A DNA stretch of 50,564 nucleotides, counting the filler, from Streblomastix strix (Eukaryota): NCBI GenBank assembly GCA_008636045.1. It is 3 parts of 3 records of this genome, joined end to end, with 100 filler letters (N's around TTAATTAATTAA, not from the genome) between each part and the next. Parts side by side here need not be neighbours in the genome. Positions count along the whole stretch, not along the records: positions 16,904 to 33,692 come from SNRW01000767.1; 2 more parts are not named here. The stretch is one strand, 5' to 3'. The notes beneath the pieces are model-generated. The model saw only the letters and a program-made list of their open reading frames with translations, was not told the DNA's origin and made no database searches. The position numbers were made by a program, and so were the translations under genes. Positions within the stretch are counted from its first letter, which is position 1, and each line of letters opens with the position of its first letter. This document shows positions 14,901 through 48,030 of this stretch, one piece after another.

Positions 14901-16239
14901 GAAAAAATGCAAATACTCCAATTCTACCCGTAACTTGATGCCTTCTCGATTCGAATCACAAAACAATGTAAAAGATATTGCTCGCTATTGAAAGACTGAA
15001 AAGCAGAAGGAAAATGCGGAGCGTTCAGCATTCCATGGAACAATGAGTCACTATTACTTCACCCACTAATCAAATTAATTCCAACAGTCTTCAAGAAACT
15101 AAAGATGGAACCAGCAACAGCTTTATTTATTCTACCGAAGTGGAGTCTGGATAAATTTAGAACTCTTGTTCCTACGATAATTTCCGAAATCGACCTGGGA
15201 AAAGTGGAGATGATACTCGAAAAGGGTAAAACACTACAGGAATTAAATCTGAGACTACCACAAGGAAACCTTTCTGCTCTTCTTCTGACAAGTATTCAGC
15301 TGGAGAATAGTTATATAGAGAATTGGCGTAATTAGCTGGATTTGAATAATAAGCAATACATAAATGATTGATAACTCAAACTGGGAGACCTGGAAGAAAA
15401 GAAGATAAGGACTTACGCTGATGTGTCAATATATTAAATTGAGAAACATAAAATCTGAATAATTAATTGCTGAACGTCCAGACATTCATGTGGTCAATGC
15501 AATGGTTTGGATAAATGGGTTAAGAGGTAAAATCAAGAAGTCTAATATAATCACTCTGAAAACGCATGTAAGCTCAACGCGTTCGTAATTCTCTAAGATG
15601 CCGAAAATTAGTGAATCAGTAATAATTAGAAATTTTTCAAGGTGTTTAAACTTAAAAACGAAATCTAGAGCTCGATATGATGTTATCAGGAACTTAGACA
15701 GGCTACTTAATTATATCGAAGATACAGATTTTAGATCACCTTATGAAGTTCAACTTCACGCAATGTATCTTTTAGTTATTTTTTCTTCCGCAAAAATGAC
15801 AGAACTTTCTCGGATACAACTTTCTGATATAAATTAAAAGCAAGACAAATGCATGATCATTAATGCATGCATCGGGATTGGCTTTAGAATAAGAAATGAA
15901 TAAATAAAATTAAACAAGACTAATACAAAGCTCTGCCATATTAATACATTAAATAAAAGGATTAATATGAGAAGATCAGTTAAAAAAGTTGGAGATTATA
16001 TCTTCTGGAACTATAATAAATCAAAACCTGCTTCATCAACATATTGCAGCTAAAGTCTCACATTACTTCTGAAGAATGCTGGTATATAATAGCCTTATAA
16101 TGGACCATCAATTCGACACGCATCGACGACAAAACTACGTGCATCTGGAGCCTCGATTATGGAAATTAACGCATTGTCCCGACATATTTTAACGTCTAAT
16201 GTTGTGGATGACTTATATTATAGACCAAATACTACGTGA
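11960..16239 (+). mobile_element. Degenerate DIRS retrotransposon: gag, RT/RNase H/methyltransferase-like domain, tyrosine recombinase
   Basis: Gag from ATG at 12036. RT motifs include RKILDCRYIN, LDLFDAYHH, PFG and YIDD. RNase H motifs include LTTDAAESGWG, SSNQRE and TDN. MT-like segment LDAFS...LLHPL...ILPKW. YR motifs include SIRHA and SRHILTSNVVDDLYY. Internal TGAs and frameshifts are present. Confidence 0.88.
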
Positions 16240-16803
16240 GAATCAGGATATACTTTATTCTCAATCGTTGATAATGCAATAAAACCAAAATTCAGTGGAA
16301 CACCATCAAATATATCTTTAAATGCTGTTCTGTTTGCTTATAAAGAATAGGATTATCCAATATTATGGAATGGAGCTATTTCTATTGATTGTTATATTAA
16401 TGCAAATGGTAACGTTATTATAAATACAATGTGTTAGATTAATTTACCTGATGATTTTTGTGTTAAAGTATGTGATTCATATGCTATTCAAAATTAATCA
16501 GTTATTTGACATAATCGAAGATTCTAACTTAAAATGTTAAATTTAAAAATAAACAAATGAATCCGATAAATGAAACAATCATCTATTCTCTAGAATTATT
16601 GAATATTAATTGGAATTCTATCTTTAAGACGATTAGGGATGCAGCATTCAAATATGCTTGCGAATCAAAGATATGCCATTGATAATTAAAATAAATTTAT
16701 TTTTGTCTTCAACCAGCATTAATCGTACTTCCTCCAATCTTACTAATTACGTCAATATTTAACACTTATGGATCAGGATTATTATCAAATGTAATTCGCA
16801 TAA
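16240..16803. mobile_element. Fragment of another copy of the endogenous virus: short-fibre 3' end (+, to 16509), 41-aa ORF (+, 16557-16682), capsid gene 3' end (-, 16709-16803)
   Basis: Colinear, high nucleotide similarity to about 27844-28373. Confidence 0.9.
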
Positions 16804-16903: not shown

Positions 16904-17200
16904 CATCAGGCGTTCCAACGATCTTTGGAGATCTTTCACTAGAAGGATGTAGTGATGTGAGTTATGCGCTAGTTCGCTTCTTGCCTGCATTGACGATTGC
17001 GGGTTCCGATGTTGTATCAGCGAATACAACAGATGAATTTCCATTGGCATATGCCGTCGTATCCAACATATCTAATTTAAATTCAAAGGTTCCTCCGTTC
17101 ATAAATAAATCGTTGCTCACAAATTTGTTCTTGGAATTTCCTGCTGTTTTTTAACCTAAGCAACTTTGGAATAAAAATTTTTGTGCTAGATAATTGCAAC
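16904..17200 (-). CDS. Partial hypothetical host gene (exon running into the contig edge)
   Basis: Open, GC-richer frame CLGQKTAGNSKNKFVSNDLFMNGGTFEFKLDMLDTT...; no family recognised. Confidence 0.4.
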
Positions 17201-20099
17201 TCGCAACTTAAACGCAAGCAAACGACAGAGGCTATGCTACATAGGTCTAAAAATAAAAATAATTAAAATATTTTTTTTGACGATAAATGAAAGAGCACAC
17301 GTTAAATTCAATTTAAGAATCTTTGCGGCAATGAGGCGAAGAGTACGATGACGTGAAAAACGAACCATTATTCAGCAACGACAAGTGAGATCCTAGAATT
17401 TGTTGATTTGCCACGAATTCACAGGGTACGGAGGCATAAGATCCTTAATAAATGTCCTAATCGCACTCGCTGAGCATTACTTGTTCAACGAGAACAAATA
17501 TTAATATGTACAAAACGAGCATCACAGATTTATTACGATCATGCCCATATTTTGAAAAAAAAATTAATTAAATACAACCTACGCATGTTAATCTGATCGA
17601 CAACATGAGCCAGACCAACCGAGTAATATAAATATGATATTTGAAACAAATATTTTGAGTAATAAAAATTAGAACTAAAATATAATAAGAAATACTTCAG
17701 TTCCAAAATCTGTCTAACTGTATGAAAAGCTGGTTCGACGAATTAGTTTAAAACTTACAAGTTTAAATTTAATTGATATATCTATTAATAATATTATCAA
17801 TAAAACGTAAGTAAGAAATTTACTTGATGGAGACATTAAATGATCATATGAAAGCAGCATAAATATAATCTCCAAGGTTCTATCGATAGATATAAGAAGA
17901 AGTTGAAATGGCAAAGGCCATAGCAACTTAGATGACTGACATTCAAAATAAGATTTAACAATAAGAACGAAAAATAATGATGTTTAATCGTCTTGAAGGC
18001 TTCATAATAAAAAGTGAAGAAAATTTTTTAATACTTCATGATTATATAATGTTCTTCTAAATATTTTGTATTATTAATAAATATCTAAAAATTTAATTCT
18101 CCATATAAAGTTGAACTTTATCAAATTAAGAATTATGCTGTATAATATGTTTGAATTAGTATATTTACTTAAATTTAAATGTAAATTATAAATCAAATTA
18201 TAATGAAAATTTAATATTTTACTTAAACAATTAAAAAAATTCTAAAACTGAAAAAAAATTGAATTTTGTTAAAATGAACTTCTCTTAAATTTTAAAAAAT
18301 TAATTTTAAAAATGTTCAACTTTTAATATAAATACCAAAATTATATTTAATTATTTAAAAATTTTCAAACATACTTTTTTTATTACTTTGGTGCTTAATT
18401 TCAAATCAATATTTCAAAATAATATACATGCATTTTTTGTTGACATAAATTTAAAATTTTTTAAAAAAATTATTAAAATTTTACTAATATTATTAAAATT
18501 CATTTTATTATTTAATATATTTAATATTTTACTTCATAATTAAACATGAAATCATCGAAGAGTTCTTAAAATCTAGTTTCAAGCTCATCACGTTTGACAC
18601 ATGAGTTGGAGAGTACAAAACTAAATTCAACGATTTCAAAATCAACTACTTAATTGAACCAACAGCATTAATGAAACAATACATATAGTTCTATTTTTCG
18701 ATAACCATCTACATCTAATTTTTCATATATATGTTTACATATGAATGATTTGGAAGAGTTTCGCTAAACGAAATTATCTGATAATAATAATTAATTGAAA
18801 TATAATTTCTAGAGTAAAATTGCATAAAATGAAAAAGATAAAGATAAAAATTTATGAATAAATCTAAAATAAAATTTAAATCTTTGCATAAATAAATAAA
18901 AATAATTGTTAGGGAAAATTATAATTATTAAATAATTATTTAATGTTTATAAATTGAATGTGAATTTTAATAAGAAAATGAAATTAATCGAAGAAAAATA
19001 ATAAAATTAAATTAACAAAAGCACAATTAGAAATAAGAAAAGCGTAAAAAATTAACCACTGCAATAATAATCAAAATAATAATAATCAGAATTGCCATCA
19101 TTTTAACAATAGGAATAATAGCAATCAATGAAAATTATAAATGAAGATTTAAATTGTATTAAAAAAGATAATAATTCTAATCTTTAATTTGAAATATAAA
19201 ATAAATTAATAATTGAATTAAAAGAATTTGATAAAAAAGTTATGAATTAAATAATTTATAATCAAACTTAATAGATAAAAATAAAGAAAAAAAAAAAAGT
19301 TGAAAATGAGTCCGATGATCAGAATTTATAAAATTAAAAATTTATAAATAAATTTTTATTAGTGATATAATTATAGTAAGAACTACAATATCAATTTGAA
19401 AAAGAATAATATTAATAGTAAACGCAACAGCAATAATAATGATATAATTATTTATATTAATAATGTTAAAATTTAAAATAACAATAATATTAATAATAAT
19501 AATATATAGAATAAATATAAGATAACTAAGATAAATTTCAAATTCCATAATAATTACTGATCAGGTAAATGCAAATATCATCACCATCATAAGATCCAGT
19601 TTAATCTTCTCTAATATTACATTATAATTATTCTCAAATTATTAACAATAATTAATTAATATTTTCTTCCTATTATATTTAATTCAATTCATTGTAATAA
19701 AAGTAACTTCCTGCTTCTGGTATTTTACAATAAACTCCATCTGATATTTTATATACTTTTAATAGTAAAATATTATCATAATTAATTTTGTAATATGAAT
19801 AATTATAAATTAAAAAATGATCAGAATAGTAATAACTTATTTCTCCTAATTATTCACTACATTTTAATTAAAATTTATCATAATCTCCTTTAGTTACATC
19901 TTTTTTATTTCCAGAATAACATTTATAGTAGTAATATTCATAATAATAGTTAATATTATAATTAGAATATCATTAATAATATCATTCGTTATAAGAGTTG
20001 TTATAATAATCAGAAACGCATTTAAAATATTAATATTAATAATAACTGATAATATTTAAATCTTAAATTTAATCGTAATCATAAAATGAAAGTGACGAA

Positions 20100-20550
20100 T
20101 AATGAATAAGCATGATTTGAATTAAAAATATGTATTTTCGTGAAAGAGACATTGACTCTGCTTATTGAACAATTAATATTAATTCAAATGAAAATTTCAC
20201 GCAGTAATTCAATGCTGCAACTAAAGGATCATGATTTTTGCAATAATAATTCTAGAAACTTTTTTCTAACCAATCGTGTAGTCATTATGGATGAAAAAAA
20301 AATTTTTGTTTAGCAATCTAATTTCAAGGGCCAGCAATGATTGCATTAGTTAATGAGTGTTAATTATCGAATTAATTTAATAAAAAAATTAAAAATTATT
20401 GATAATATTAATGATAGCTTTATAACTAAATGCACGAATATGAGATTAGGATAAAAAGATAACTAAATGTCGATTTTAGATATATTTAAGATTAGAATCA
20501 TTAGTGCATATATAAAAATGATTCTATTTGAATGTCGAATTTGCAATGCC
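20100..20550 (+). pseudogene. Family-B DNA polymerase C-terminal relic (Polinton/virus type)
   Basis: MYFRERDIDSAY* is a decayed DTDS catalytic motif, followed by QQFNA, DEKK, GPAMIAL and CTNMRLGQK. Frameshifted. Confidence 0.6.
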
Positions 20551-20599
20551 ACCAATTAGTTATTTTGAATTTATATTTTTTTTAAATATACAATTTTTT

Positions 20600-21080
20600 A
20601 AGATAAGAATTTTATATATTTATATTCTCAATTTCATCGTCGTTAACAATTATCATTTCATTGAATTACAAATATTTTGAATTAAGATCAATGATTTTCT
20701 TATAAATCACAATTAGTTCAAATATTAATGTTGTTTTTCCACTTCCAACTGCTCCTACAATATAATGATTTCTATTAAAATTGAATAATGAATTCATCGT
20801 TAATGGTTTATTTTTATATTCATCCAATAGACATTAGTTCATAAATGTTATAATTTGTAATTGTTGAAGAATAATTTTAATAATAATAAAATAAATATTC
20901 TTAAAGCCATCAATGAAACTATGAATTTCACGTTCAAGGGCATTAATTTTACTGTTTCAATAGTCGTATTATCAATATCAGTTCAAAGAAAAGAGATAAA
21001 TGAACTGTTTAATGTATTGTGGAGTTATTTCGATATATTATTGTTACTTTTGAATTCAGAGATTTTTGTTTTTAAATTTC
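20600..21080 (-). pseudogene. P-loop ATPase relic, probable viral packaging ATPase (A32-like)
   Basis: Walker A HYIVGAVGSGKTTLI at about 20732-20755 and a possible Walker B IIVNDD, next to polB and viral ORFs. Confidence 0.6.
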
Positions 21081-21094
21081 TTTGTAAAAGAAAA

Positions 21095-22311
21095 ATGGCA
21101 AAAGAGAAACCAAGAATGCATTGGTCAAATAAATTTCATTAGAATAAATAGAAGCAATTTTTAACAAAGCTATTGCAAGTAAAGATTTGGAATTAGCACC
21201 ACATTGTAGGCATTTCTTATATTTGAAAATGTTAAATCATCCGAGTAAATATAATGTTTATATATAATTTAATGGAACTAATTTACGAATTAATGACAAG
21301 TATTGGTTTGAAATTTAATACAACAGATCATGAATTTTTCAAAACATTTGATGTACTAATTGAAAATCATGATTTGAACAAATAAGAAAAATAGTTGTAT
21401 GATTTTTTTTCAAAACAATAAACATACATAGAAACGATATAATACGAAATAACTGGATATCATAAAATATTTAAAATGTCTCAGTTTGCTATTGTGGATG
21501 AAATAAGCTAATTCTTCTTCGATAAATTTCACAGAAGGAAATAATAATTAACAAAACTGATATTTTCATTACCATTAATAGATTAATTTTATATTAATTT
21601 TTCTCATCAATTGCTTCTGATATGATATACTTTTTGATTTGTTTCTGCTATGTATTTTGATCTATTGTTTTTTAAATTTTATTGTATTTACTTATAAAAT
21701 ACTACTTTTGTTAATTAATTAGAATATTTTTGAATTTTTCTTCATCAACATATTTCTTGATTTATAATAGCTTCGAATATCAATTTATAAATTATTTATT
21801 TATTCATATTAATTCTTAAAATATTGGATGTATTTATTCATCCTTATCTTTAACCAAAATGTTTTGTAAAGCTTCAATGATGAATTTAATTGTAAGAGTT
21901 TCTTCGAAATGTGATTTCTCAATTTTATTGGTTAATTGCTTAATTTTTTGGTTTCTTTAAATAAAAAATAAAATGTTGCATTATTTATAACTTATTCATT
22001 GAATAAAAAATAAGTTTATATATCTTCTTTTGAATCGTAATCAGTTGATATATTTGAAACAGGATTAGACGTTAGTATATCAGTATTGAGTTCCGGAAGA
22101 GCAATTATGCCTCAAAGGAAATGTAAAAATTAATTTTTCCATAGACCAATGATAAATCTAAAAAGAAAAATATTAATTTTGCTGTGCAAAGGCATATTTC
22201 ACTTTCACTTGCAAATTTATTTGCATTTTCCTAAATAATTTTGAATATTTCATGCAAATTAATATTCCATTGTCAGAGAGAATAAATGATAGATTCATTG
22301 TGAGAAATCAT
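21095..22311. pseudogene. Decayed homologues of viral ORFs A (+21095), B (+21272), C (-, about 21480-21990) and D (-, about 22190-22311)
   Basis: PRMHWS/AIASKDLELA vs PRIHWS/AIANKDLELA; KSHFEETLTIKFIIEALQNIL vs KSHFNDIDTIKGTIEALQNLL; NESIIYSL...FASESEIC vs NETIIYSL...YACESKIC. Confidence 0.8.
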
Positions 22312-23391
22312 TTATTTTATTAATAAATTTTCCATATTTCATTTATGAATCATTTACTTCTTCAGAAAGTTACATAATTAATAAAATTTGTACCATAAAT
22401 TATAAAATTTAAATATATTATTAATGATGTATTAAGATGCCTGCCCTCGAATCAAAAATATAAAAAGTTATTTGGAGGATTAATTGAGATAGTTTTAATT
22501 ATATTGGTGAATTATTAAAAAATATTTAATGGATTTATTATAGAATTGTTTAAGAAAATTGAATATGTTTAATAATGAAAATGAAAGTGAATTGTTGTTG
22601 ATGTATAAATTTATTAATGAAAATGAATTATATTGAGCAATTGTATGAAAAATTGTATGAAAAAATTGTGTGAAATATTTAGTTTGGTTGCTTTGCGGGT
22701 TAATGAATAGGAATTATTGTTATAAATAATTGTATTGATTTTGATTCTCAGGCAGGCTACTTAATATATAACTACTCATTGTTCAAACCTGATGATTTGA
22801 ACGATACGTGTTAACATATATTGACTAAAAGACTTGGTCGAATCAAGTTTATACAAGTGAAAATGAAACAACAGTATCGACTAGTTTTACCATTCATAAA
22901 ATGGATTATTTATTAAAATTAATGGTGTTGAACAGTTATAGAATTGATTATAAACGTTTTTTTTGGAATATACACATATGATATGACCTTAGGTTTGTAT
23001 TTCAGATAGACATGAAAATTTAAGATTTTTATGGGGATTCAGACGTAATATAAAATATTATTATTTTAAATATATATACCAAAAAAAAAGTTAAAAATAC
23101 AAGGAAAAATAAATGTTTTCTAATTGACTTGAGAATAAGTTTTAAGGTCAATGTCGATATACCAATCATGAATTTGATGTTGAAAGTGGGTGCTGCAATC
23201 ATTGTTTAAGGTGAATTACGAGGAGAAGTATGAAGATTGATCATATCGATTAAAATCGCGTATGAATTGAATAAGTGTCATTGAATTTCTTATTTATTAT
23301 TGTAAATTTATTAGTGATGATTTAAATTCATTATCCGCAAATTATAAAAGTTAATTTAATATAACTAATTGAATGGTTTTATTTTAAACAA

Positions 23392-23826
23392 ATGCAAACA
23401 AACAAACAAATTAAACAAACCAGAAAAAGATAACCGAAACAAGTAGTCCTATAATTGATCGAAAAATATCCTGCTCCAATTGATGAAGTACTTCAAACTC
23501 CTATAAATGCTCCTATTATTAAATTATCTTAAATTATTACCACTCCATTGATCAATATATAATAAGAGTAAGAACGAAAAGAATTTAGAGGTAGACCTAA
23601 AAAATATATATCCCAAGGAGAAGCTGAAAGAGTTGCTGCAGAGTAAAATTATTGGGCTCAATAGCTGTATCGCATTCATCGATAGGAATTCTGTTCATCT
23701 GCTAATGGTTTGTAACTAATTTTGATTCGACGTCTTCAGAAAGCTGTCGTAACTAACATATAAGATTTATTCAAGATTTGTGACATTATCCTAAGATCAT
23801 ATCTTAGTCATAGATTACAAAAATGA
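23392..23826 (+). CDS. AT-hook protein (144 aa)
   Basis: Intronless ORF containing RKEFRGRPKKY. Confidence 0.65.
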
Positions 23827-24884
23827 TGTTTATAATCAATTCTGAAACTGTTCATCATCATCAATTTCATCAAATGATGTATTTTAATCAATGAAAACTT
23901 GGTTCAACATATTCATATAGTCATTATAAGATAATCAAACCAAGTTAGATAAATAAAATAGACATATAATTAGAACGTATCGGTCAAATCATTCGATTTG
24001 AGCTATGTATTATGAACAAAATGGGGGTCTGCCTGTAGAAAAATTAAAAAATTTTCATTACTAAATTTAATCAACAATCATAATAAATAATTTCCAATAT
24101 ATATTTTTGAATTTATATATTTCATCAATAAATATAAATTTTTAGTCTCAATAATATTAATTATTACTTTGAATATTGCAAATATGCTTATTTTTTGTTA
24201 TATTTTTATTTAAGAATTTTTTTTTGAAAATAAATCTTATTTTTTCTATATATTTATATTATAGAGCTAAATTTCCCTAATTAATTGATATAGAAGCTCA
24301 AATATGGACCCTGCATGAATGTAAATATTGAATTCTTTCTTTATAACATACATATATATTTATTAATTAATTTAATGTTAAAATTTATTTATAATTTAAT
24401 ATTATTTATTAAAATTATAACTATAAATTGTATAAAATTATAATTAATTAATTTTTTAACTATAAAAAAGGATAATAACTCATTTTTTGGTTCATTGAAT
24501 GACTATTAAATTGAATAAGTTCGAATTTTTCTTATATATATGTATATATAAAAATATGAGTAGTATAGAAAGAAGAAGTTTGGGGTAAGTTCAAAATCGT
24601 ATTTATTATAATTAATTTACCCGCGATTTTGAACTTTTTCCGTCAATTTGCGAAAATCCCTAGAGCGGAAGCACATACATAGGTATGGTTCCATTAATCA
24701 TAGGAAAATGTAAAAATTGATGAAATAGAACAAATGTGAATAAATTGATTATAATAAATATGGTTTCGAACCTACTACAAACATTTTTCTGAGCAATGCT
24801 AATTAATTATTAAAAATAAATTATTGAGGGTTAGCGTATTAGTTAGTGTTAATAATTGTTATAATAAATTATTTTTATATTTGT

Positions 24885-24956
24885 AAGTAGCCCAGTGGAT
24901 GGAAACATGAATTTTCCAAGAGGTGCTGGGTTCGAACCCCACAAAGTGCCGTTTTT
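24885..24956 (+). other. tRNA-like / Pol III A-box and B-box element (degenerate)
   Basis: TAGCCCAGTGG (A box) and GGTTCGAACCC (B box, T-arm stem tggg/ccca), followed by TTTTT. There is no proper acceptor stem. Confidence 0.5.
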
Positions 24957-25449
24957 GCATTCAGTCATTTAGAGCCAAAATGCAAAAATTTGTAAGAAAA
25001 AAAAATTTTTTTTTCGATTTTAGACAAATTTTTTAACCTCCCTTTATTTATTTTTATTTTTAATTTTAATGATTTTTGGGATATTCAGAAGATATTTTTT
25101 TAATATAATTTTTACAAATAAGAATTATCCTTAAAATTATTTTTTTTGCAACATTCGTGCGTATATTGATGAAAATTATATATAAAATAAATGTAAAAAT
25201 AAATTACCTGCACATCATTCAGTGATGTTTAATTAATCTTTATTTTTAAGATATGCATCAATATACGTATTATATCACGTATACTACTTAAAATAGCATA
25301 TAGATTTGATGCTAATTTTTTCTTTGTTTCAATTTTTTTAATTTCATTATTAAGTTATTAGCATTCTTACTGTAATTTTGGTTCTATCTCTTTAAAATAT
25401 TCATACATTTATTTGTCCATTTTGATTAAATTACAAAAAATAATTGTAT

Positions 25450-26067
25450 CAATATAAATCAAAATCATTGTATTCTTATTAATCTTATTCTTGTGGTTGT
25501 TCTTGAATGATTTGTTAAGGCTCCTATTAAATTTATTATGGCTCTTCCTTTTCAACAATCTGTTTTGATTATTTGTTTCGTTTTGCTTTCAATTTATATT
25601 TCTTTATTTGTTTGATAGCGTCTTAATGCTATTGCTTAATAAATGAATTTTCTGTTCGTAATTTGATTAATTTTTCTAAATCAAGTGATGGATTAGTGTA
25701 ATTAATTTATAGAGTTTTAGATGTTTTTACAACTCTTTTTTTAATTTATTTCTTTAATGGTTTTTCTCGAACTTCACTAATGAAATCGTCACTTTCAACC
25801 TAATCTTCCTACTGTTCATAAGATATAAAATCTTCATCATCAATTTATTTTTAAGATGTTTTTTAAACATTTTTCTTTGGAGCAACCCCACATTTCGCTT
25901 ATAACAGTAATTTATTCTACTATGTTTAAGTTAATTTTTTAAGTGTCTTTTTCCTTCTTCGAACACTTTAATATCTTTATTAATTTAGATGACGTATCCG
26001 TTGTCAAAGTATTCAATATTTGTTCCATTCTCTATTAAATTCTTCAATGCGTGTTGTAAGTCCATAT
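25450..26067 (-). pseudogene. Viral hypothetical protein, probably frameshifted
   Basis: Starts MDLQHALKNLIENGTNIEYFDNGYVIQ and ends with an acidic/Gln-rich QEYNDFDLY*. Confidence 0.45.
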
Positions 26068-26142
26068 GAATAATTTTAAATTATGAAAATGATAAAAGGT
26101 ATAGAAAGAAACTAAATTCGCATGTCAAAATCTAAAATATAA

Positions 26143-26835
26143 ATGTCTGAGATTAAACACAAAAAATTAACTGATGAAGATAAAATAAGATTGCAATTGA
26201 TCGATGAAGCATTTAGTCACATAAAATCAATGCCTAGTCAAGGACTTGAGCGAAGTGAAACGGTCGATGAGACCATCAAACCAAAAGAAAATGAAACATA
26301 AACCTAAAATGAAATTATTACATCAACGCCTGAATAATTAATGCTTACATAATAAAAAATAACTAAATATGAGAGTAAATATAATAAAGATAAATATAAA
26401 CAAATTGATAGAACAACAGCATAAGTTGAACCAGATGAAGTAGTTAAAAATACTTATCTTTCCCATCCAAATTTAGCCGTCATGAAATTCATCATTGATT
26501 GTCTATGGAAGACAGTAACAACAAGAAAAAGAGGAGATGAATTTATATTTTCATCAGATAATTTTATTAAACTTTGGTCATTAATCACTTAAGAAAATGA
26601 AGATGACATTGAAATAGTAATAGAAGAACCATTGATGTAATCACATTCATGCAAAGGAAAATCATATAAAAAGAAAGATTTAATTCGCGTGATGGATGTA
26701 TTAATTAAAAATGTTAGCATATCAGTTATTGATAATGTGCTTTTCAACTCTATTGAGAAATTATATAGAATCAACAAGGATTTCGTTCGTTTATCTGATG
26801 CTCCTATATCAGAGCTTACCAAAGATGATTTTTGA
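26143..26835 (+). CDS. Viral hypothetical protein (230 aa; alternative in-frame start at 26122)
   Basis: Open frame MSEIKHKKLTDEDK...ELTKDDF*. Confidence 0.7.
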
Positions 26836-26891
26836 TAATTATTTTAGAAGTCTATTTTTTTACTATTTATTTATTTTTACCAATAACCAAA

Positions 26892-27329
26892 ATGCTTTCA
26901 AAATCCGAAATACTTAGAGGAAAATTGCTTTAGAAACCTTAAAATATTGCAAAGGAAATATGCGTAGAACCAATATATTAATGTGATGATGATTTCTAAT
27001 AACGAACAGTAAATTAATATAACAAACCATACTATAAATTATTAAAGCGTTATGGAAATAATCAATGGATTCCATAAACAATTTACATAATGATCGAGAA
27101 AAGAAATAATGAACATATTGAAGAAACAATTAAACAATATACATAATAGATGAAAGAGCTTCTGAATAGCATTTCTCATTATCCAATACGTAATTTTAAT
27201 GATGCAGAAGCAACTAAATTTTATGAAATGGAACATGCAATTAAATAAATGTAAGAACAAACAAAATACAATTAGTACGGCTAATGCGGAGTTTAAAATG
27301 AAATTAATTGTATATAATACTACGTTTGA
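26892..27329 (+). CDS. Viral hypothetical protein (145 aa)
   Basis: Open frame MLSKSEILRG...CIQYYV*. Confidence 0.65.
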
Positions 27330-27353
27330 TGAACGATTATTTTTGTAATAAAA

Positions 27354-28112
27354 ATGTACCAAAATATAAGTGATTTAGATATGATTGATGAAGAAGAATA
27401 ATCTATGTAATAAGAACAGGCAATTAAATTAATATAATTGTAGGAATAATAATAAAAATAGATAAATGATAGGAATAATTTATTTTAAATCATTGATTAA
27501 GAGACCATTAAGTACTTCAATTATTTGAGTTAATTTTTCAAAAATGCTATTGATTTTGTTAATTTACATTCTGACTAGATAATTAGAGGAGTAAAGACAT
27601 TTTTATAACCAATCATTGCTAGTAAAATTGTTAAATAAGGTGAAACAAGCAACTAAATTCTATTAGCTAATGGAGATACAATCGATAAAGATTAATTAGC
27701 CTATGAGCCAATTGAGAATGAACGTTATTCATCAATTGCATATAGGATGTATGAATAGCGAATATGGGGCACATTAACAATATAAAATAGTAGAGTATAT
27801 ATTTCACTTCAAATAACTCACTCAGATCCGAATACTTAGTGTGAATCAGGATATACTTTATTTTCAATCGTTGAAAATGCTATAAAACCAAAGTTCAGCG
27901 GAACACCGTCAAATATACCATTATATGCTGTTATATTTACGTGTAAAGGATAAGGATATCCAATATTATGCAATTGTGCTATTCCTATTGATTGTTTTAT
28001 TAATCCTAATGGTAATGTTATAATAAATACAATGTTTTAGCTAAGTTAAACTGATGATTTTTGTGTATAAGTATGTGATTCATATGCTATTCATAATTAG
28101 TCGGCTGGTTGA
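27354..28112 (+). CDS. Short fibre-like protein (252 aa)
   Basis: Coiled-coil N-terminus, fibre-type motifs DQIIRGVKTF and QILLANGD shared with the long fibre, and a beta-rich C-terminal domain. Confidence 0.6.
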
Positions 28113-28131
28113 GCAATTTAAAAATAAACAA

Positions 28132-28257
28132 ATGGACGGATTCAATGAAACTATCATCTATTCTCTGGAATAATTGAACATCAATTGGCATGCTATCTTT
28201 AAGACAATCTGGGAAGCAGCGATCAAATATGCGTGTGAATCAAAGATATGCTATTGA
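28132..28257 (+). CDS. Conserved 41-aa viral ORF D
   Basis: MDGFNETIIYSLEQLNINWHAIFKTIWEAAIKYACESKICY; a same-length homologue lies at 16557-16682. Confidence 0.65.
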
Positions 28258-28278
28258 AAAATAAATTTATTTTTGTAA

Positions 28279-30222
28279 TCAACCAGCATTGATCGTACTT
28301 CCGCCAAGCTCACCAATGACATCAATATTTAACACTTATGGATCAGGATTATTATCAAATGTAATTCGCATAAATGCATCACATAGATAATGTAGCATTG
28401 GTGTAATAGATGCCTTAGTTGGATCAGGATAACTTCTCATAGCAATAAATTATTTTAAGTCATTTCAGTTCTAATCTTTATTTATATCTGTACTATCTAA
28501 TACTCCTTTAGTCAAATTACCATTTAAAATAACTTATATATTTGTTCTTGCACCTAGCATTGATGAGTTATATCCTCGCATAAATGAATCATCAGTAGCT
28601 AATTTCCACGCTAACATATATTTGTTAGGATATAGTGTTTTACTAGCTTTTGTCCCTTTAAATAATGTAGTCATTGTGAATACATTTACGTCACCTCGTC
28701 CATAAAAATCACTTTTATCAGAACAATTCAGATTTTCAAATGTAAGTGAATGATATAGATCTGATGGGGCACTAACAACATCTTAATCAACGAAACAATC
28801 AAAAATTAGTCCATTAACGGTTTGTGTCAATGCGTTATATAGCTATGGAACTACATGTCGTTAATCAATAATTAAATCAAAATCATAAAATAATATAGGA
28901 TAAAACCATGTTGGATACTATGGCATGGCAAACGTCATAAATAGTGATTTCATATTAGAGAATGACATAATATTTTACATTGCTCCACTTTATTCAGTAA
29001 TACCACTAAATGGGAAATTTGATGATTAAGATTTAAATACTTAGGTAGGAAAATTGACTATTATTTATTCTCTAATCATGCTAACTATTGCTTCTTCATT
29101 TTCAACATTAAAACATATATTCTATATCTCTAATTTCTCAAATCGTGCATTATTTATTTAACTGATATTGTTCTATGGTCCTCTATCTCCATTTGCAGCA
29201 TTTTACATATTGACTATTCGTACATTAAATTTCTTATAACTAAATACTTCTGCTTCATTTGGTTCAGCTAATATATATACTATATCTGGTTTCTCAGGTG
29301 GAATCATGTGATAAGCCAAATGTAAATTTTGAACAGCATCAGTTTTGTTAAGCCAAACTACCTTCAAATCCTATAGATAATCTTATATCCAAAGTTATAG
29401 AAATAGTGAAGCATAATTCCGTGAAAGAACAGGAAATGAATTAAAGATTGGATTTAATTAATTAAGATCAAGTACTCCACTAAATGTAATATCAAATGGA
29501 ATTTTAAAATACCAAGGAGTTGTACCTGATTATTCATCAATATCAGATAGAGGAATGTCAATAAATATTCCACAATGACGTTTACCATTAATGATGCTTT
29601 CTAGTGGAGAAACACTAACGCTATTACTAGTGCACAAATCACTCAATGAATTAGAACTAATTGCAGCTTATTCTCTGGCATATATAAAAGTATTCCATAA
29701 TGCAGTAGCATCACGCATCAATTGAAATTGGTGAAATGGTATACACGCAGTGGAGAATCCAAGCCAAAAACGTAATCGCTCAGATTTCTCATCTCCTTCA
29801 ACTGTTTTTCCATAAAACTTTTAATTTGCTTATGCTATATTTTTTGCAACAGGATCTTAGGAATTTATTTTACCATTGAAGTTAAATCTTTTATTTATAT
29901 CATCTCCTTCTTCATTTGTTTTATTTAATTATATCGCTAATGTATCGGCTGGTATGGTAATTGTCCAATTTACTTAGCATGTATACACCATTGAACATGT
30001 GGCTAATCCCCTTGCCCCTAGTGGTGCTCTAGTATATTTTACTCCACTAGATGTTAATTCATTTTCTGGTTAATCGGTGAATTATTGCATGGAAATTGAA
30101 AATGATCCTTGATGAATCTTTAATGTTTTTAATACTTCACCTTATTACATATAACCAGCAACGTAATCAGAGTGTTACATTTTTTGCAAACGGGCTAGAT
30201 AATCACTAGATTTGAATGACAT
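28279..30222 (-). CDS. Putative major capsid protein (647 aa; double jelly-roll inferred)
   Basis: Intronless ORF MSFKSSDYLARLQ...RLRFWLGFSTAC...FSGVLDLNQLNPIF...YMLAWKLATDDSFMRG...TPMLHYLCD...INAG*. Size, beta-rich pattern and neighbourhood fit an MCP. The ORF is well supported but the function is inferred. Confidence 0.65.
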
Positions 30223-30288
30223 TTCAATAAAACAAAAATAACTGTATGCTGATGACAATAATGATAATAAATTTTATATTAAATCAAA

Positions 30289-30498
30289 ATGGGATTCTTC
30301 TCTGGAATAGCGAATTTTGGATCGAAAATTTTAGGCGGTGTTAGGAAAGCAGCGTGATGGGTAGCACCAGCATTACATAAAGTTTTATCAACGATATCTG
30401 GCCCAGTTGGAATGATTCATCCTGCTATTGGTGGCGCATTAGGGGCAGGAGCTAATCTTGCTGGTGCTGTTGATCGATTAGTCAATAAGCGAGGATGA
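30289..30498 (+). pseudogene. Small Gly-rich amphipathic protein, adenovirus protein-VI-like (one internal TGA at 30355)
   Basis: MGFFSGIANFGSKILGGVRKAA*WVAPALHKVLSTISGPVGMIHPAIGGALGAGANLAGAVDRLVNKRG*. Confidence 0.6.
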
Positions 30499-30524
30499 AA
30501 CTCGATCAATTTATTTTTGTAAAA

Positions 30525-32789
30525 ATGAACATCCCATTATCGTAACAAAAAACTCGAACAGTTAGATAGTTAATCACTAACGATATTGCTTAATATATTC
30601 AATATTAGAAACGAGGTGGATCAAGTGGCGGAATGATGTCCGATGAGGAGTATCAATTATTCATAGATAATAACAATGCATTAGTCTATGCCGCTAACAA
30701 ATAAATACTCGATGGAATGGCATCAGATTACGCATTAAAAATAGATCCTCCGGGGCTATTAACGATAAAGAATTTGAAGGTGATTAATTTTGATTTTATC
30801 GCTTTGATTAATTAGTTGATTAATTAAGTGAATTTACTATAATAATCAATTGGAACAACAAAATAAGATATCTCTGATATAAAAAATGATATTGATACTA
30901 TTAATCAAAAAATATCAAGATAAACACATTTCAGAGGATATTATTTATTGAATACAGATATTAAAAAATTTTTTAATTCCTCTAATGGAGATTTTGCTTT
31001 TAGTGCTGAAAGTGGAACAGTTTGGATGTTTGATTAAAATTGGTATAATAGTGAAGATATAGTTCCAGATCAAGTTACACCAGCTAGTGATGCAACACCA
31101 TTATCTGATGGTACAGCATCAGCAGGAATTAGCACAGACTAATCACGTGGGGATCATGTGCATCCCAGAAATGTAACATCAACTATTCCAATTAGTGATT
31201 CTGCTAGTGGATCAGTTGGTACAAGCAATTATTATGCTATAAACGATCATTCTCATCCCCTCAATATAACTTCTACTGTACCACCACAAGATAGTGCAAG
31301 TGGATCAGTTGGTACAACTAATTTTTATGCTTGAAACGATCATTCATATCCCATTAATGTAGAAACTAACGCTTCAAATATTCCAATCGTTGATGGTGTA
31401 GGAGCTAATGGAACATCTTCTTTTTACGCTAGACAAGATCACGTTCATCTATAACAATTAACATATGACGGGAACGTAACTGCAACAAAATTTATTAAAA
31501 CTGGAGGATTAGCAACTGAAGTGTTATGCACTAATGGAGATACTACAACGATATCTAATAAGATATCTCGTGAATATAATGCAAGTGCTGGCGTATGGAT
31601 TAGATTATGTAACTTTCCTGCTGGTGCCAGTGTTGGTAGTCCATTCATTGAATTTAAAGTATATTCAACTTATAATGCAGTTCAAACCATTAAATTACTG
31701 CCATATTATACCGAAAATGGAATCACTAATGTATATGGAATATTTAATGCTCCAGTTAAAGTTAGTTCATATTATGATATTGAATAAAGTGTTAATTAAC
31801 TATTTCATAATCATTCTGGATCAGGCACATCAGCTATTTATTCGGCATATGTTCGATTAGAATCAGCTGGTACCGTTACGATAGTTGTATCTGATTAAAG
31901 CACTTATTATACCAATAGAATCACAGAGATATTAACCTAAGATGTAGTCTAAGTAGTAGCAAATGGTACATAAATACCAATTACTTATGATTTAGCTAAT
32001 GGAGGAATAATAAATAATATGCTATAAGTTAATCCAACAGGTAGAACATATACTACGTTTAATAATGGTATTAGAATTGGAAACTATAACACAGAATACT
32101 CATCATTATATTTAGGCTGTTCAAATTCAGCTATAAATACTATACGAACTGGTTAATGAGAAATTAGTAAAACAAGTGATAGGGCATTGACAATTAACCC
32201 ATCTTCTCAATGATAAGCTGATCATAGTGTTGGTTTAAGTATTATTGGTGACAGTTCAATAATAAAATTTAATGGTAATGAATTAGTGAATGTTAGAACT
32301 GATTAAACAATTACAGGTATAAAAACATTCGGAAAATTATTATAAGATAACCCATCAGCTGATGGAACATATAACGAAGGGATACGAATTAGTAGATCAA
32401 CAAAAAATTAATGGAGTAATATATAATTTAGTTGTGATCCAAATACAAATTCTGGGGGTATTGATAACTAATGGATTATAGGAACATCTGGAAATAATGA
32501 TGAAAATCCACTTGGTTTTATCATAGCAAAGGCAGGATAAGAAGGTTAGACTAGTAGAGGTTTATAAATATCCGCTGATGGAAACACATTAACGTTCAAT
32601 GGATCTGTTGTTGCTGGTATTGGGGCAACAAATGGTGCAACTAATGGTTCAGTTAATTATTCTGCAGGCAATCCAATATTATGTGGTCTAAATAGCGTTG
32701 ACACTAATGGAGGATTTTATAGCGGTGGACCTAAAGTGTATTGGAGAGCTAAACCAGTTACATTAGGGGCTGTTCCTGTTCCTCCATGA
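30525..32789 (+). pseudogene. Long tail-fibre-like protein (754 codons; TGAs at 31332, 32157, 32211)
   Basis: One continuous frame with four G-x(4-5)-(Y)(A/S)RxDHxHP-type repeats, DQTITGIKTF, and repeated GIRI...W modules. Confidence 0.7.
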
Positions 32790-32819
32790 TCAATGATAAT
32801 AATTTATTTTTGAAATTAA

Positions 32820-33173
32820 ATGGAAAAACAATAGATATAGCCAATCAAATAATTATTCAATGAATTAGTCAAATCTCACTTTAATGATATCGATACAATT
32901 AAAGGAACAATTGAAGCATTATAAAATTTGTTAAAGAATGATGTAAAAGAATCAATCCATCCATTACTCTAAGAATTAATGAGAATTAATAAAATGTTCA
33001 CTAATCAATAACAATAATTATAAAATATGAAGAAGATGGTAGATGAAGAAGATAATAAAAATAAATTATTTAATGAATAGGATAAATACTTCAAAAAATA
33101 AATATTTATTAATCAAAAAATCATTAGATCTAAACAATTAATCATAACAAATAAAGAAATACATTATCTCTGA
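32820..33173 (+). CDS. Viral ORF C, coiled-coil (probably frameshifted, continuing to about 33280)
   Basis: MEKQQIQPIKQLFNELVKSHF...; KKYIISEA in another frame matches the sister copy. Confidence 0.6.
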
Positions 33174-33238
33174 AGCTAGTGAAGAAGAAAAATAGATTCA
33201 CCATTAATTTGTGAATGATGAATAATACAGTAACTTTG

Positions 33239-33493
33239 TCAATTATTATCAGCTTAATTTAAAATAATAAGATTGTTGATATATTATATGTATTTGATTA
33301 TCTCTTCAATTTTATCTTACATTGGTTCGAGAAAACAAAAATGCTAATTTAATTGTTCATATATTTATTTTTCCTCATCATTCATTTCATTTAAATTTAT
33401 CTCAATTAATGCTTCAAATATTTTGAAATTCTCATACTCAGATGCATTATACTTTTCACCAATGCTTCTAGCTAATTAGTAAAGCTATTCCAT
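33239..33493 (-). CDS. Viral ORF B (84 aa)
   Basis: MEQLYQLARSIGEKYNASEYENFKIFEALIE; homologue at 21272. Confidence 0.65.
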
Positions 33494-33503
33494 TTCATTT
33501 AAT

Positions 33504-33668
33504 TCAAACAATTTATTTACTTGGTTAATTTAACATTTTAAGATAATGGATATATCTCCAATGTGTGGCCAATTCTAAATCTTTATTTGCTATTGCTTCA
33601 TTCAGAAATGTTTCGATTTATTCTACAGATAGCTACGACCAGTGAATTCTAGGCTAATTCTTATCCAT
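33504..33668 (-). CDS. Viral ORF A (54 aa)
   Basis: MDKNQPRIHWSQLSVEQIETFLNEAIANKDLELATHW; homologue at 21095. Confidence 0.65.
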
Positions 33669-33692
33669 TTTTCTTTTGTAAAAGAATTGTAT

Positions 33693-33792: not shown

Positions 33793-35256
33793 ACTATCCT
33801 TGTACAACTTTTAACTAGGAGAATATAATAAAATAAAAATTAGAAGCTGAAACAATGTGGCGGATGATCTGTGGTCATTTTATTGAGATTGGAAAATGAG
33901 ATATTGAAAAAAATTAAAACGCTCTCCAAAAAATAACCCCTGCCAATTCAATGGGAAAATGTGTTTGTAGCGCCATTAGACATAAATTGAAAGTTTTGGT
34001 GCCGCGGCCAACGATCTGTGGTCATTTCAAATTTTAATAGGGATTAGATGCTAATCTTGCCATCCAGATATGATCTAGAAAAAATAAGAAAGTTTTGACA
34101 TGAACCCCAGCCATTATTAAAAAAAATATAATTAGAATACCAATATTCTTAGTTTTATGGAGAAAACGAGAAAAAAGCTGTAGCTCGTGCAGATATGCTC
34201 TGATATATAATTTGTTGGTATACAACCTCTTTATTTGGCATTTCTCACAGAATGAGCTAGTGTTGTTTTGGAGGCACGTGTAGGCAAAAAATTTTTCCTG
34301 GCCTATCTCAAATATGCCTAAAATGCCATGGTTAGGCCGACCCACCCAGTCAAAACCTTCAGGGTCAATTTGGCATCCCCAAGTTTATATTAATTATGTT
34401 CTATACATCAAAAAATTAAATGTATATTGTTTAAGAACTCAATAGTAAAGTGCAAAATTCTCAAAATTAACACCAATTTCGTTGAGAAAAAGATAATTTC
34501 TTTTTATATATGCAATTTCAACTTTTTATTTTTTATATTTCTTATAAATAAAAATACAATATTATTTAAAGACTCATTTAAATATTTAATTATAAATCCT
34601 TAATTGAAATAAAAGGTTAAATGAGTTTTTAATTTGACTTTAATTCGTTTTAATCAGAATGATGAAAACAATCCCCGACGAAGGAGTTACAAGTGTTTCA
34701 GGAAAAAATAAGATTTGGCTGTTGGGGCACAAATTCGCAATATTAGGGAGTTCATTCTTAGTTTTTTTCTTGGTCATGATAATAAGTGGAGATGCTTAAT
34801 TGATATATCCTGGCATAATTAATGCGTCATACTTTATACCTATTGGAATATTTCTTCTGAGTATAAATGCATAGTTGATTATAACTTACGATCTTAAAAG
34901 CAGAGTATTGATTGCATTCAAAGTATGAAATTAATTTTCTTTCTTTAAACATCCATTCAATTAATGTATTAAAATAGATAAGAAACATTGTGAAACTTAT
35001 GTTCTGTATGAATAAATATAAGCAATAGACATATGACGAAAATTCAATCAACTGTGCATTTCAGAATGATGGATACTGTTATAGAGGATGCCATGAATGT
35101 TGTCAATGCAACAAATCATAGAAACTTTGTTTGACAAATGGGAAAATTAAATCATTTGCTTAAATATTCAAGTAAGACGAACTCATCCCTATAGTTGAAG
35201 CTACTAATTCAAGAGAGCCACAAGATCCACAAGGATACGGATTAGTATCGTACAAT

Positions 35257-37720
35257 CAGGGTTATTTTTCATATTTTTTTGTTGGTGGCTACGTAACATT
35301 TGGGGGTGGCAAACTTTTTTTGAATGTAAATTAATAATAATAAAATCTTTGAAATTTATTATTAATAAATAATTAATTTTTTTTTATTTTGACGAGTATA
35401 AATAATTAAAAAAAAACCATTGATAAAAAAATATATTAGTTTAACAAAACTGATAATTATTCTGAATGAAATTGAAGAATTTTTAAAAAAATGAACAAAT
35501 AGAAAATTGGATATAAATAATAATGAATTAAATTCAAGTATCATTTGAATTAAGTGTTTTTCAGGAACAATTCAGAATATTTAAGATTAATATTGATAAA
35601 TCAATTTATTGAAATGAATATGAGGAATAATTATGATTGTTTCCGATTTTACTTGAAGTTTCATTTGAATTAAGTGCTTTCCAGGTGCATTTCAGTGTAA
35701 TTCAGATTAATGTTGATAAATCAATCTAATGAAATGAATAAGAGGAACAAATATGATTGATTCTGATTTTAATTGTAGTTACATTTGAATTAAGTGCTAT
35801 CTAGGAACAATTCAGAGTAATTTAAATTATTTGCTTAGAAGTGTAATTAATATGATACATTGAGTTATTAATTTGATTAATTTTAAATAATTTTCAAGAA
35901 TATAAAGTTTGAATTCTTTGAAAAACAATAAAATTCAACATAAATAATAAATATTTAAATAATTACATAAACAAATTAATTAATATATTTATTAAAAATT
36001 ATATATCAAAATATAAATTAAATTTCTATATATAGACATAATAATCAATAAAAACAATTATAATTAATAAATAAAATAAAATTGTGATTTGATAATCTTA
36101 TTTTTCTCATCATCCATTTTAATCATCTTCAAATTCATCCATATATCCGTTAAGAATATATAGTTTAGACTGCCAAAAATTATGAGGTAAGCTTAATCAC
36201 TATAATGCAATAATTCTCGAATCTTCATCAGATATTTCATCTGGAGAACTAAAAATTACTGAAAGGATATAATTTAAAGTAGGTTCTCCAAGTCTATTCT
36301 TTATTGATGATTTAACTTTTTTCTTTGCACTGAAAAGACACTAAACAGGTGCATTTGATGGAGCGATTGTAATTTGAATTTGAGCTAAAGTTCTTATCAT
36401 CAGAAATTAGCTAAATTCTTATGATCTCAATACAATTTAACAAGTTTATTGCACAGATTTTCCTTCTGTATCTTTATTAAGATTTTTTGCTTCAACCCAT
36501 TCTTATTGCAATTGAATTGAAACTTATCTTTTTTATTATTCATCATGTTCTTTGATAATTAAGTGAATTTATTCTTAATTTAGTGTTGATTACAATTTGT
36601 GATTATTTCTATTCTTCTATAATTTTGATTTATCATTATTTTCTATTTCTAAGAGATTGAACTTTAATACTTAATTGAACTAAATTACTATAAGAATTTT
36701 TATAATAACAGCAATAAATTTAATTATTATTAATAAAAAAGCAAAAATATTCAAGTTTTATTAAAAATATGTTTTAAATTTTAAAATTAAAAAAATAATT
36801 AATACCGTCATCATCAGAATCAGTTTCAAATATATCAGCCTCATTTGAATGTTTTGTACTTTATTTTTATCTTAATTGAAATCATTACTTCAAATTCCAT
36901 TATTATTATGCATAAACTTTTCATTTTGTAAAATTCTTTATGATTCTTAACCGTTTTGTGCCTAAATTCGAATAGTCTTTGCATATATTCCAATTTCACT
37001 TCAATGTCATATCTGTTAATCAATCGAAACAAAATCCTGGAAAAATAATATAGCCTGTGGAGGATGATTCATTTTTTTTCAGTAATATTAATTTTCTATA
37101 ATTTAAATAAAATAAATATTAATAAAAATATAATAATGCACACTTTATTTATCTACATTTAGAAAAAAGTAACACAAGATCATCCTCATCTAGAAATAGT
37201 TGTTAATCAGTCAAAAGCAGGAAAGATTCTAATTATTCACTTTAATAAAGCAATCTTCAGAAAATGGTTTTATTCTAGTTGAATTTGTCTCTATAAATAT
37301 ATAAATATAATAATGCATGTCAGTAAAATACAATTTTTGAAAAAATATAAAATTTAGGTATTTATAGGAAAAAAAAATTCTTTTTAAATTAGCAAAAAAA
37401 CTGTCTATTTTAATTAATTTTTTATTAAGTTAATAAAATAAATTTTTAAAATATAATTATATCGTTCAAATAATTGAATTAGAACATAATAAAGTACCTT
37501 GTTAAAAGAGTAGAGAACCGGTTAAATTTTTGCTTATTTTCACGCTATTAATCATGTCAAGTCACTTTTAAAAAAGTTAGATTTTTTTCTTTGAATTTTT
37601 TGAAAAATTGTCAAAATAGGTGAAGTCGAAAATAGGCTTCTTTTCCTAAAATTCAAGGTGGCAACAAAAATGGTTCAAATGTGGCTGTTGCCACCCTGTT
37701 TAAAGTAGAAAAAAACCCTG
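35257..37720 (-). mobile_element. hAT DNA transposon (internally decayed) with TIRs and 8-bp TSD
   Basis: Ends CAGGGTTATTTTTC and GAAAAAAAACCCTG, flanked by CGTACAAT at 35249-35256 and 37721-37728. Subterminal GGTGGC(A/T)AC motifs occur at both ends. Relic dimerisation domain TIAPSNAPVQCLFS...KNRL at about 36250-36400. Confidence 0.92.
35542..35825. repeat. 120-bp tandem repeat, about 2.4 copies, inside the hAT element
   Basis: catttgaattaagtg recurs at 35542, 35662 and 35782. Confidence 0.9.
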
Positions 37721-38628
37721 CGTACAATCCACCTTCCACAATTTTGTTACACGAATCTTAATTATCTTATCCGCTTAAATATTCTGATTCTGTTGTGCTA
37801 TCATCGTCACAACTAGCACTTTCGCAACAATAGGCTAATTATCAACTTCAGAGCTCATACCCTACACAGTTGCTTGCATAAGATCTTTGTTTTGCCAAAG
37901 AAAGATACATATAGACTTCACCGAACCAAGTTTTATATATACTATCATACATTTTCATTAATTTGTTATTTATCTTAATATGTATTAATGGTAGATTGAT
38001 AGAATATTGAATAAATTTATTGTTTAACGTTAAAAATCTTAAGAGAGACTATGATTTATCATTTGATTATTACCATTTTAGTGAATTTGAAATTCGAATT
38101 TTAAATAATTAGAAATTTTATTTGCATAATCTAAATTAAATTTTTTATATTAAAATAAAATAATAAATTTGAATATAAATAACCGGAGAATTTTAGGGAC
38201 GTCGATGGCCGTAGCGGTTGGATGGACCCCGCAGATGGCTTCATTTCGCTAGCAAAAACGCCAGTACCAGGGGACGCCCCCACAACAGTCGCCTGGCACA
38301 TACGGGTACGATGAGACGCCTTAATTTGATCCTGAACATGAAGTAGCCGTACAAGAGGTGTGCGTTAGGCAGATGGAGTCTTTTTTCTCTTTTATGGACG
38401 TTCTAGAATTAGTTAGATAACCAACTTGAATATTTTTTTTATTTACATACTATACATGCTATTTTCCAGTAATTTTATTTCAATAAACTTCACCTAGTTT
38501 AAATTTTTTCAATTTCAATTTTTTTCACTAATTTTGTAATGATCAATTGTTTCAATATTTTATTAAATTTTCTTTTCAAATTTAATTTGCATATATTTTT
38601 ATTAATTTTTCTTTAGATTAAGCAATCA

Positions 38629-40985: not shown

Positions 40986-41631
40986 AATTGAGTTAAAGTA
41001 ATGATAAATGGATAATTGAATATATAATAATTTCACATACACATAGGCATGCTTAAATGTGTCAATGACCTTCACTGAGTTGTGCGGGCAGAGCAGCAAT
41101 AATCATTTCTTGAACTTAACTGTTTTTTATTTTATTTTCATTTCATGTATAGATTAGATTAAAATATTAATTTTTTTAATAAATTTTAATAGCACTATTA
41201 TTCCTTCAATATTAATGAATAGATCAAAAATTAAATTGATTAAACAATTTTGTTTATTTATTTTTGCTGAAATGGAGATCAGAGAAATATTTTTGCGAAT
41301 ATTTAGTCATTTGTTGCGAACATAAAAATGTATGTATTAAGCGACTTATATATCTTATTTATTCGAATATTAATTAATTTTGACTCTAAAATAAGTGGAA
41401 AAATAGAATTTATTAATAAATCGAAATTTTTCCTGATCAATTTAATTAATTACTCTAATTATTGATTATTCTTTATAATAATGATATGATACGTTTAATA
41501 GTTATACTCCGAGCTAATTTAATATTTATAAAAACCTAGTTTATTTCCTTTAAATCAATTAATTCTCCGAAGCTTTTTTTTACTACTTATTGACTTTATC
41601 TCAACATATACATTGCAGGTCTTTCAATACC

Positions 41632-47805: not shown

Positions 47806-48030
47806 GAAATTCGTTTTTTTTAGAACTAAAATTCACTATAAAAAAACTAGAAATTTAAGTATTGACCAAGCCTTATTTTTAAAATAAAAATCAATTATTA
47901 TATTTATTAATATATTTTAAAATAAATTTGTGAGTTTATCTGTTAGCAACTCTTAAAACTGATTTTTTTTTACTGTAAAATCTAATAATCGTGCACTTAT
48001 CATACAGCTCCTACATGCCCATGCATAACC

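Follow-up and report, generated by a model that had tools for sequence, protein, structure and literature searches.

Introduction

Polinton-like viruses and other Polisuviricotina-type elements combine a double jelly-roll major capsid, an A32/FtsK-type packaging ATPase and a single jelly-roll penton with a genome of 15 to 40 kb and terminal inverted repeats. Elements of this kind have been described from the oxymonad Streblomastix strix: in its accessible part, PMC10120064 reports S. strix elements written in a code that reads TAA and TAG as glutamine (TAA/TAG=Gln), counts 820 capsids there, all in one Metamonada (MMN) cluster, cluster 40, common to Trichomonas and Entamoeba, and estimates that viral elements make up ~11% of the S. 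strix assembly. A Polinton-like virus in its host's code is thus already known, and an earlier sequence-only reading of the DNA analysed here overstated its novelty. That DNA, which we call the window, is a 50,564-nt stretch of S. strix sequence (assembly GCA_008636045.1) composed of three contigs (1-16803, 16904-33692 and 33793-50564) spliced with identical N spacers. Its middle contig harbors a packed gene block, 25085-33692, which very probably represents, in decay, one copy of a Polinton-like double-stranded DNA (dsDNA) virus of S. strix. This virus is likely integrated and present in high copy number, and it has structural genes in the TAA/TAG=Gln code and a predicted double jelly-roll capsid.

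The element is most like the cluster 40 elements: as far as the accessible part of PMC10120064 goes, the two share the presumed host, the code, hundreds of copies and a double jelly-roll recognisable only structurally, but the capsid is ~550-590 amino acids (aa) long there and ~630-660 aa here, and no motifs or tags are common to both. The nearest relatives here are unnamed metagenomic proteins and not trichomonad capsids. With the Polinton-like viruses, as portrayed in the available sections of PMC4642659, the element shares a (predicted) double jelly-roll capsid, relatives' contigs of 18-22 kb and perhaps a linked P-loop ATPase (here a remnant's relic), whereas a minor capsid was not found and no sequence link to the described capsids of that group emerged. 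Strict Polintons/Mavericks (pPolB plus RVE integrase, with target-site duplications and an adenain-like protease) are likewise multi-copy, capsid-bearing and likely integrated, but neither pPolB nor an integrase was found in the available part of this truncated element. The virophages Sputnik and mavirus resemble the predicted capsid in fold (Foldseek E 4e-10; VIA Z 11-12), though at 8-10% identity and with matches no better than those to Nucleocytoviricota capsids, and nothing points to a helper virus. A 2026 framework places Metamonada elements in no group, to judge from the accessible part of 10.64898/2026.06.19.733378, and S. strix goes unmentioned in the accessible parts of 10.1101/2024.03.23.586382, 10.64898/2026.10.13.758929 and 10.1101/2025.04.19.649669. 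A literature search on S. strix viral elements, to which subscription papers were mostly inaccessible, returned PMC10120064 alone.

Results

A packed gene block in the TAA/TAG=Gln code

Read with translation table 6, the element resolves into 11 called frames that cover 96% of 25088-33692 (Table 1). Table 11 yields just 2 open reading frames (ORFs) of at least 100 aa inside 23392-33692, leaving the gene block nearly hidden, as the sequence-only reading had said of the standard code. The capsid frame contains 33 TAA/TAG compared with 7 CAA/CAG codons, and a single TGA in 647 codons compared with 13 expected from base composition. Because S. strix homologs are translated with the same table and would make a test of the code circular, we used nine distant homologs (21-28% identical), whose standard code is taken from full-length gene calls. 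Glutamine fills 44 of the 240 cells (18%) that these proteins contribute at 31 TAR columns, compared with 4% elsewhere, an enrichment equalled in 0 of 10000 permutations. These comparisons support a code in which, in this element, TAA and TAG specify glutamine and TGA is the only stop. TAA or TAG accounts for 33 of the 40 capsid glutamine codons; a host with the standard code could therefore not translate the virus, which would tie it to the S. strix lineage.

The copy as a whole is interrupted by 5 nonsense codons and by no fewer than 3 frameshifts, including those near 25950 and 33475. The breaks fall on glutamine, arginine and tryptophan columns of the homologs; this mixture indicates that TGA is a stop and not a reassigned codon, and read-through of TGA was rejected on this ground. 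The breaks are thus nonsense changes or assembly errors and not a further change of code. The two of the five TGA breaks that sit on glutamine columns presumably reflect the single transition that separates TAA from the sole stop codon.

Table 1. Features of the element and its surroundings (window coordinates)
Position	Strand	Feature	Remarks
16225..16803	+	Fragment of another copy, 580 bp	252-aa ORF end, 41-aa ORF, capsid C-terminus; 81%; other contig
20250..20842	-	Frameshifted P-loop ATPase relic	Walker A GAVGSGKT at 20755
21075..23008	-	Inverted remnant of the family, extensively deleted	Similar to 23790-24007, 28108-28265, 32829-33689
23317..23826	+	ORF, 169 aa, RGRP motif	Raised depth; 3' region common with remnant
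24573..24787	.	Imperfect inverted repeat forming a long hairpin, non-coding	Left of gene block; 47-nt arms, 81%
25085..25468	-	ORF, 127 aa	Table-6 frame; no family above cut-off
25449..26065	-	Charged, low-complexity ORF	Frame shifts near 25950; 12 run X1 contigs have one extra base at 25947
26047..26835	+	ORF, 262 aa	No family above cut-off
26892..27329	+	ORF, 145 aa	No family above cut-off
27354..28112	+	Second fibre-like ORF, 252 aa, open	Module common with one long-fibre homolog (45%, 80 aa)
28132..28257	+	ORF, 41 aa	Kept in all three copies of window
28279..30222	-	Predicted double jelly-roll major capsid gene, 647 codons	In-frame TGA at codon 586 (28465-28467)
30289..30498	+	Amphipathic, Gly-rich peptide, 69 codons	pVI-like by resemblance only; in-frame TGA at codon 23
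30495..32789	+	Long fibre-like frame, 764 codons	Probably starts at 30525; three TGA codons in frame
32820..33173	+	ORF, 117 aa	Homolog present in inverted remnant
33239..33692	-	Frameshifted ORF at contig end	Homolog in inverted remnant adjoins ATPase

The main protein is a predicted double jelly-roll capsid

The sequence-only reading described an intact 647-aa ORF. The frame is present at exactly 28279-30222 on the minus strand, but it is not intact; its TGA occupies a column at which 74 of 86 aligned homologs have glutamine. The full-length homolog P0003, which is 91% identical to the window capsid over 571 aa, was modelled (AlphaFold2, 104 sequences) with a pLDDT of 87.0 and a pTM of 0.90, and with this model Foldseek returned 230 matches in the PDB at E<=0.001 (best E 1.6e-12). 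At 5-10% identity, the model matched double jelly-roll capsids in Foldseek and VIA, among them those of PBCV-1, iridovirus, faustovirus, Sputnik and mavirus; VIA gave Z 14.9 and rmsd 3.7 with 336 aligned, and in BFVD the top rows are viral capsids, save a few unnamed or oddly named ones. The double jelly-roll that had been anticipated for this protein was thus recovered on its close homolog. In the ESM Atlas, the distant homolog P0225 matched capsid clusters, the best being a 583-aa Parabasalia-rich cluster. Neither the capsid nor the fibre received a name from sequence searches against PDB, Pfam and PHROGs, although several UniRef entries for capsid homologs are labelled 'Major capsid protein'.

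Judged by the homolog's model, the main protein is predicted to be a double jelly-roll capsid. The last 62 capsid residues, lost in the window copy, form the final strands of the P0003 model. With these strands of the second barrel lost beyond the stop, the window copy is unlikely to fold whole and has presumably lost the ability to make a complete capsid.

Fibre-like frames and an amphipathic peptide

The two fibre-like frames of the sequence-only reading were both recovered, the long one interrupted. The latter has an N-terminal coiled coil, DHxHP repeats and a beta-rich C-terminus, from which we infer a fibre function. Its profile matched a coiled coil alone in a family library search, and 2 of the 120 listed fibre clusters (of 280) bear the UniRef name 'Tail fiber protein'. 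The 252-aa ORF, compared with its contig-1 copy, shows 22 third-position changes vs 11 and 8 at the others.

The peptide between capsid and fibre, previously called pVI-like, is indeed amphipathic and glycine-rich, with a hydrophobic moment of 0.55 over residues 3-20, a value that stands without a control set. It has no Pfam match, and the label stands for a presumed likeness to adenovirus protein VI, a type of peptide that has an N-terminal amphipathic helix and lyses membranes. Its break lies where all 26 homologs aligned there have glutamine. Among 119 listed fibre gene models, 24 start with the amphipathic peptide, which indicates the same gene order elsewhere. At 30481-30608 (+), a phase-0 GT..AG stretch would fuse the peptide in frame to the fibre, as many depositor gene models do; the join may be a predictor artefact, since the portion left out of it is preserved as the fibre N-terminus. 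Near the structural protein ends, ILGG, KRGG and ELGG at 30289-30640 (+) and 28282-28300 (-) resemble what we take to be adenain-type cleavage motifs, hinting at an unseen protease.

A large S. strix family with distant relatives

Copies were counted through protein databases in clusters at 90% identity, with 120 rows listed per family. The fold, the code and the cluster counts bear out the sequence-only reading's view of a highly divergent, multi-copy dsDNA virus-like family that encodes a capsid and uses the TAA/TAG=Gln code, but the family is far larger than the minimum of three copies then envisaged: it comprises 233 capsid and 280 fibre clusters, and all named rows among the matches listed are S. 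strix. Matched by eye, no fewer than 12 pairs of a capsid and a fibre gene from the 119 + 119 homologs listed have near-adjacent locus tags and lie on same-sized contigs, which links the two genes in other copies as well. Summed contig depth in run X1 is 17,000-83,000 over 25304-33692 vs 62-131 in flanking bins, several hundred times the flank, which is a relative level and not a copy number; the small-share runs X2 and X5 gave short pieces only and pointed to no habitat.

A capsid profile search of 1.84 billion representatives returned 212 matches at E<=0.001, of which 187 reached <=1e-10. The best 150 of the 212 include ten long distant homologs, metagenomic or unnamed, on contigs of up to 21.8 kb, and a second capsid search added 14 more relatives; relatives' contigs measure 18-22 kb. 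Profile-profile comparison joins the S. strix family and the distant relatives along 588 columns, and in a quick tree of 30 selected rows, which has long branches, the S. strix copies (15 of the 30) form one group on a long branch. Locus scans of viral, metagenome and genome contigs found no relative.

Capsid frames stay open across 45-91% identity. Together with the branching of the tree within S. strix, the 13-fold depletion of TGA and the third-position bias in the 252-aa ORF, this argues at the sequence level that the structural genes were under selection during family diversification, after the code had been adopted. These same observations bear on whether the family instead spreads as an intragenomic transposon or by passive duplication, no longer making particles and keeping its capsid genes as relics. 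The nonsense stops and frameshifts of the window copy, the heavy deletion of the remnants and the fact that only 30 of 121 family capsid proteins reach 590 aa would suit such relics; the open, branching capsid frames, the depletion of TGA codons and the changes concentrated at third positions speak against them, and we consider this explanation rather unlikely.

Relation to the published cluster 40

From the sequence comparisons, the family is probably a second capsid lineage beside that published for S. strix. It would not be one if it belonged to the published MMN Maverick-Polinton family, either counted there already or as another gene with a capsid fold in those elements. The accessible part of PMC10120064 gives two reasons to think so, namely its S. 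strix capsid genes in the same code and a listed cluster-40 capsid whose locus tag is three from that of fibre homolog P0360, though possibly on another contig; a further one is the Parabasalia-rich cluster nearest to P0225. Indeed, ESM features suggest remote kinship to the Trichomonas-type capsid, whereas the sequence tests, all of them indirect, are negative. However, membership of cluster 40 was set, according to the same part of PMC10120064, at 25% identity over 30% of the length of a Trichomonas-type capsid; the 562-aa example printed there lacks the family motifs, and 6 motifs plus 6 close-homolog tags gave 0 matches in its supplement (minus the S. strix Table S5 rows and Table S6). The 212 profile matches in 1.84 billion leave no room for the large trichomonad family, no capsid Pfam family appears in 82 members at E<=1, and the capsid here has its own fibre and peptide neighbours. 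We therefore regard inclusion in cluster 40 as unlikely.

Neighbouring remnants, the ATPase relic and integration

The sequence-only reading counted at least three copies in the window. Related sequence is present at 16225-16803 and 21075-23008, but these are a 580-bp piece and a 2-kb remnant in three joined contigs. The remnant (~2 kb) keeps three separate pieces that are 64-77% identical to the element, and the ATPase relic lies ~230 bp past the point where the remnant matches the right end of the element. In Pfam, the relic matches P-loop families only (E 0.005-0.03, below cut-off), and it stands out in depth, at a multi-copy level in run X1. Thus, of the sister copy previously described, the Walker-A ATPase relic holds, whereas neither the polB relic nor the proposed linkage to polB is supported: polB had no Pfam match in 21 + 17 frame translations. 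The polB candidate at 22735-23040 (+) was rejected because its loose A/B/C-like motifs are too close together and it has no codon signal. Compared with a second copy, its changes are spread evenly over codon positions (17, 20, 22) where controls are clearly biased, and, of all six frames, the one proposed for polB shows the fewest synonymous changes.

Integration is indicated by the low-depth flank on the same contig and by the fusion of the 580-bp fragment, at the end of its contig, to a DIRS-like retroelement. Most of 18197-22754 is tiled by contigs of low depth that carry 0-3 differences. A chimeric contig of free virus and host DNA, its stops being assembly errors among many similar copies, would accord with a likely short-read, amplified assembly, with false stops of that kind reported in the accessible part of PMC10120064 and with relatives on ~20 kb contigs, but it is highly improbable given hundreds of divergent, differently broken copies, the tiled flank, the retroelement junction and kilobase internal deletions, which are not base-call errors.

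The DIRS-like retroelement occupies 11865-16239 (+) (reverse transcriptase Pfam E 1.2e-10; tyrosine recombinase E 1.9e-7), and its recombinase end runs straight into the viral fragment at 16225. This tyrosine recombinase (15700-16200) was discarded as a viral integrase because it follows the reverse transcriptase and belongs to the DIRS-like element. The 64% inverted match between 21075-21945 and 32843-33688 was discarded as terminal repeats, since it encodes protein and has diverged much further than copies of the family have, and the short-sided read joints 18856-23279, 20876-24360 and 26879-20876 were not relied on.

Other features of the window

Left of the gene block, 23900-25050 holds no supportable ORF in the table-6 reading. 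The segment 24560-24990, which includes the long hairpin, folds with z = -4.0 (0 of 100 shuffles as good), and smaller, GC-richer stems continue the hairpin to 24990; it is a candidate origin or terminal structure. A GGTTCGAACCC stretch near 24930 was considered as a tRNA and dropped, having no tRNA or Rfam match. The 169-aa ORF is probably the left part of the element, and we take its RGRP motif to be AT-hook-like. Just upstream, at 23170-23260 (+) and in a raised-depth bin, lies a short stretch with CCxxC and IDHID motifs and no family match, presumably resembling an HNH nuclease fragment. Elsewhere, the window contains a second decayed reverse transcriptase at 2915-3910 (-) (Pfam E 8.5e-10), three 120-nt tandem units at 35525-35884 that are leucine-rich-repeat-like when translated, and a fragmented host phosphatase gene at 43099-44807 (-) (Metallophos, E 4e-8), an example of interrupted host genes.

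Discussion

Several points weigh against the reading of this locus as a decaying, integrated Polinton-like virus. The window's own truncated 585-aa protein was modelled at a pLDDT of 52.5 and found no Foldseek match, so that the double jelly-roll would be attributed to it through the 91%-identical homolog. The fibre and pVI labels have neither family nor fold support. The link to an ATPase would come from the relic of the neighbouring remnant, which we assign to the A32 type by its Walker-B-like and RH motifs alone. No host gene was found by Pfam in 16904-20500, and the designation of that region as host flank thus derives from depth and composition. The window may itself come from run X1, and the accessible part of PMC10120064 cautions that assemblies of this sort can contain artefactual stops. 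Polymerase, integrase, protease and minor capsid all lack a Pfam match in the called ORFs and frame translations, and no element termini were found in a sequence that runs off its contig at 33692. More specifically, no integrase matched in 18000-26000 or the called ORFs, the available part of the element shows no adenain-like maturation protease, and sequence searches gave no family match to a single jelly-roll minor capsid (penton) among its ORFs. However, the contig end cuts the element on the right, and because of this truncation the absence of integrase, protease, penton and termini means little.

If the locus is a decaying member of such a virus family, intact members would be expressed by host nuclear transcription and glutamine-reading ribosomes. 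Capsid trimers would build icosahedral particles with fibres at the vertices, an A32-like ATPase would package the DNA, the amphipathic peptide may breach membranes during entry, and repeated re-insertion into the host genome would follow. Our confidence is evenly poised on a broader proposal, that these copies represent a ~20-kb protist virus family with its own capsid, fibre and entry peptide, one branch of which was recoded and invaded S. strix hundreds of times independently of Trichomonas-type elements.

Were the family distinct, published counts of S. strix viral elements would miss a second large family. It would also add divergent metamonad-type capsid lineages, the lack of which is stated in the accessible part of 10.64898/2026.06.19.733378. 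The recoded copies and their apparently standard-code relatives form a paired set for asking how a virus adopts its host's altered code and becomes confined to that host. If these copies are indeed the recoded branch of an unclassified ~20-kb family, the standard-code relatives would make it possible to trace directly what recoding costs a virus and by which route it proceeds.

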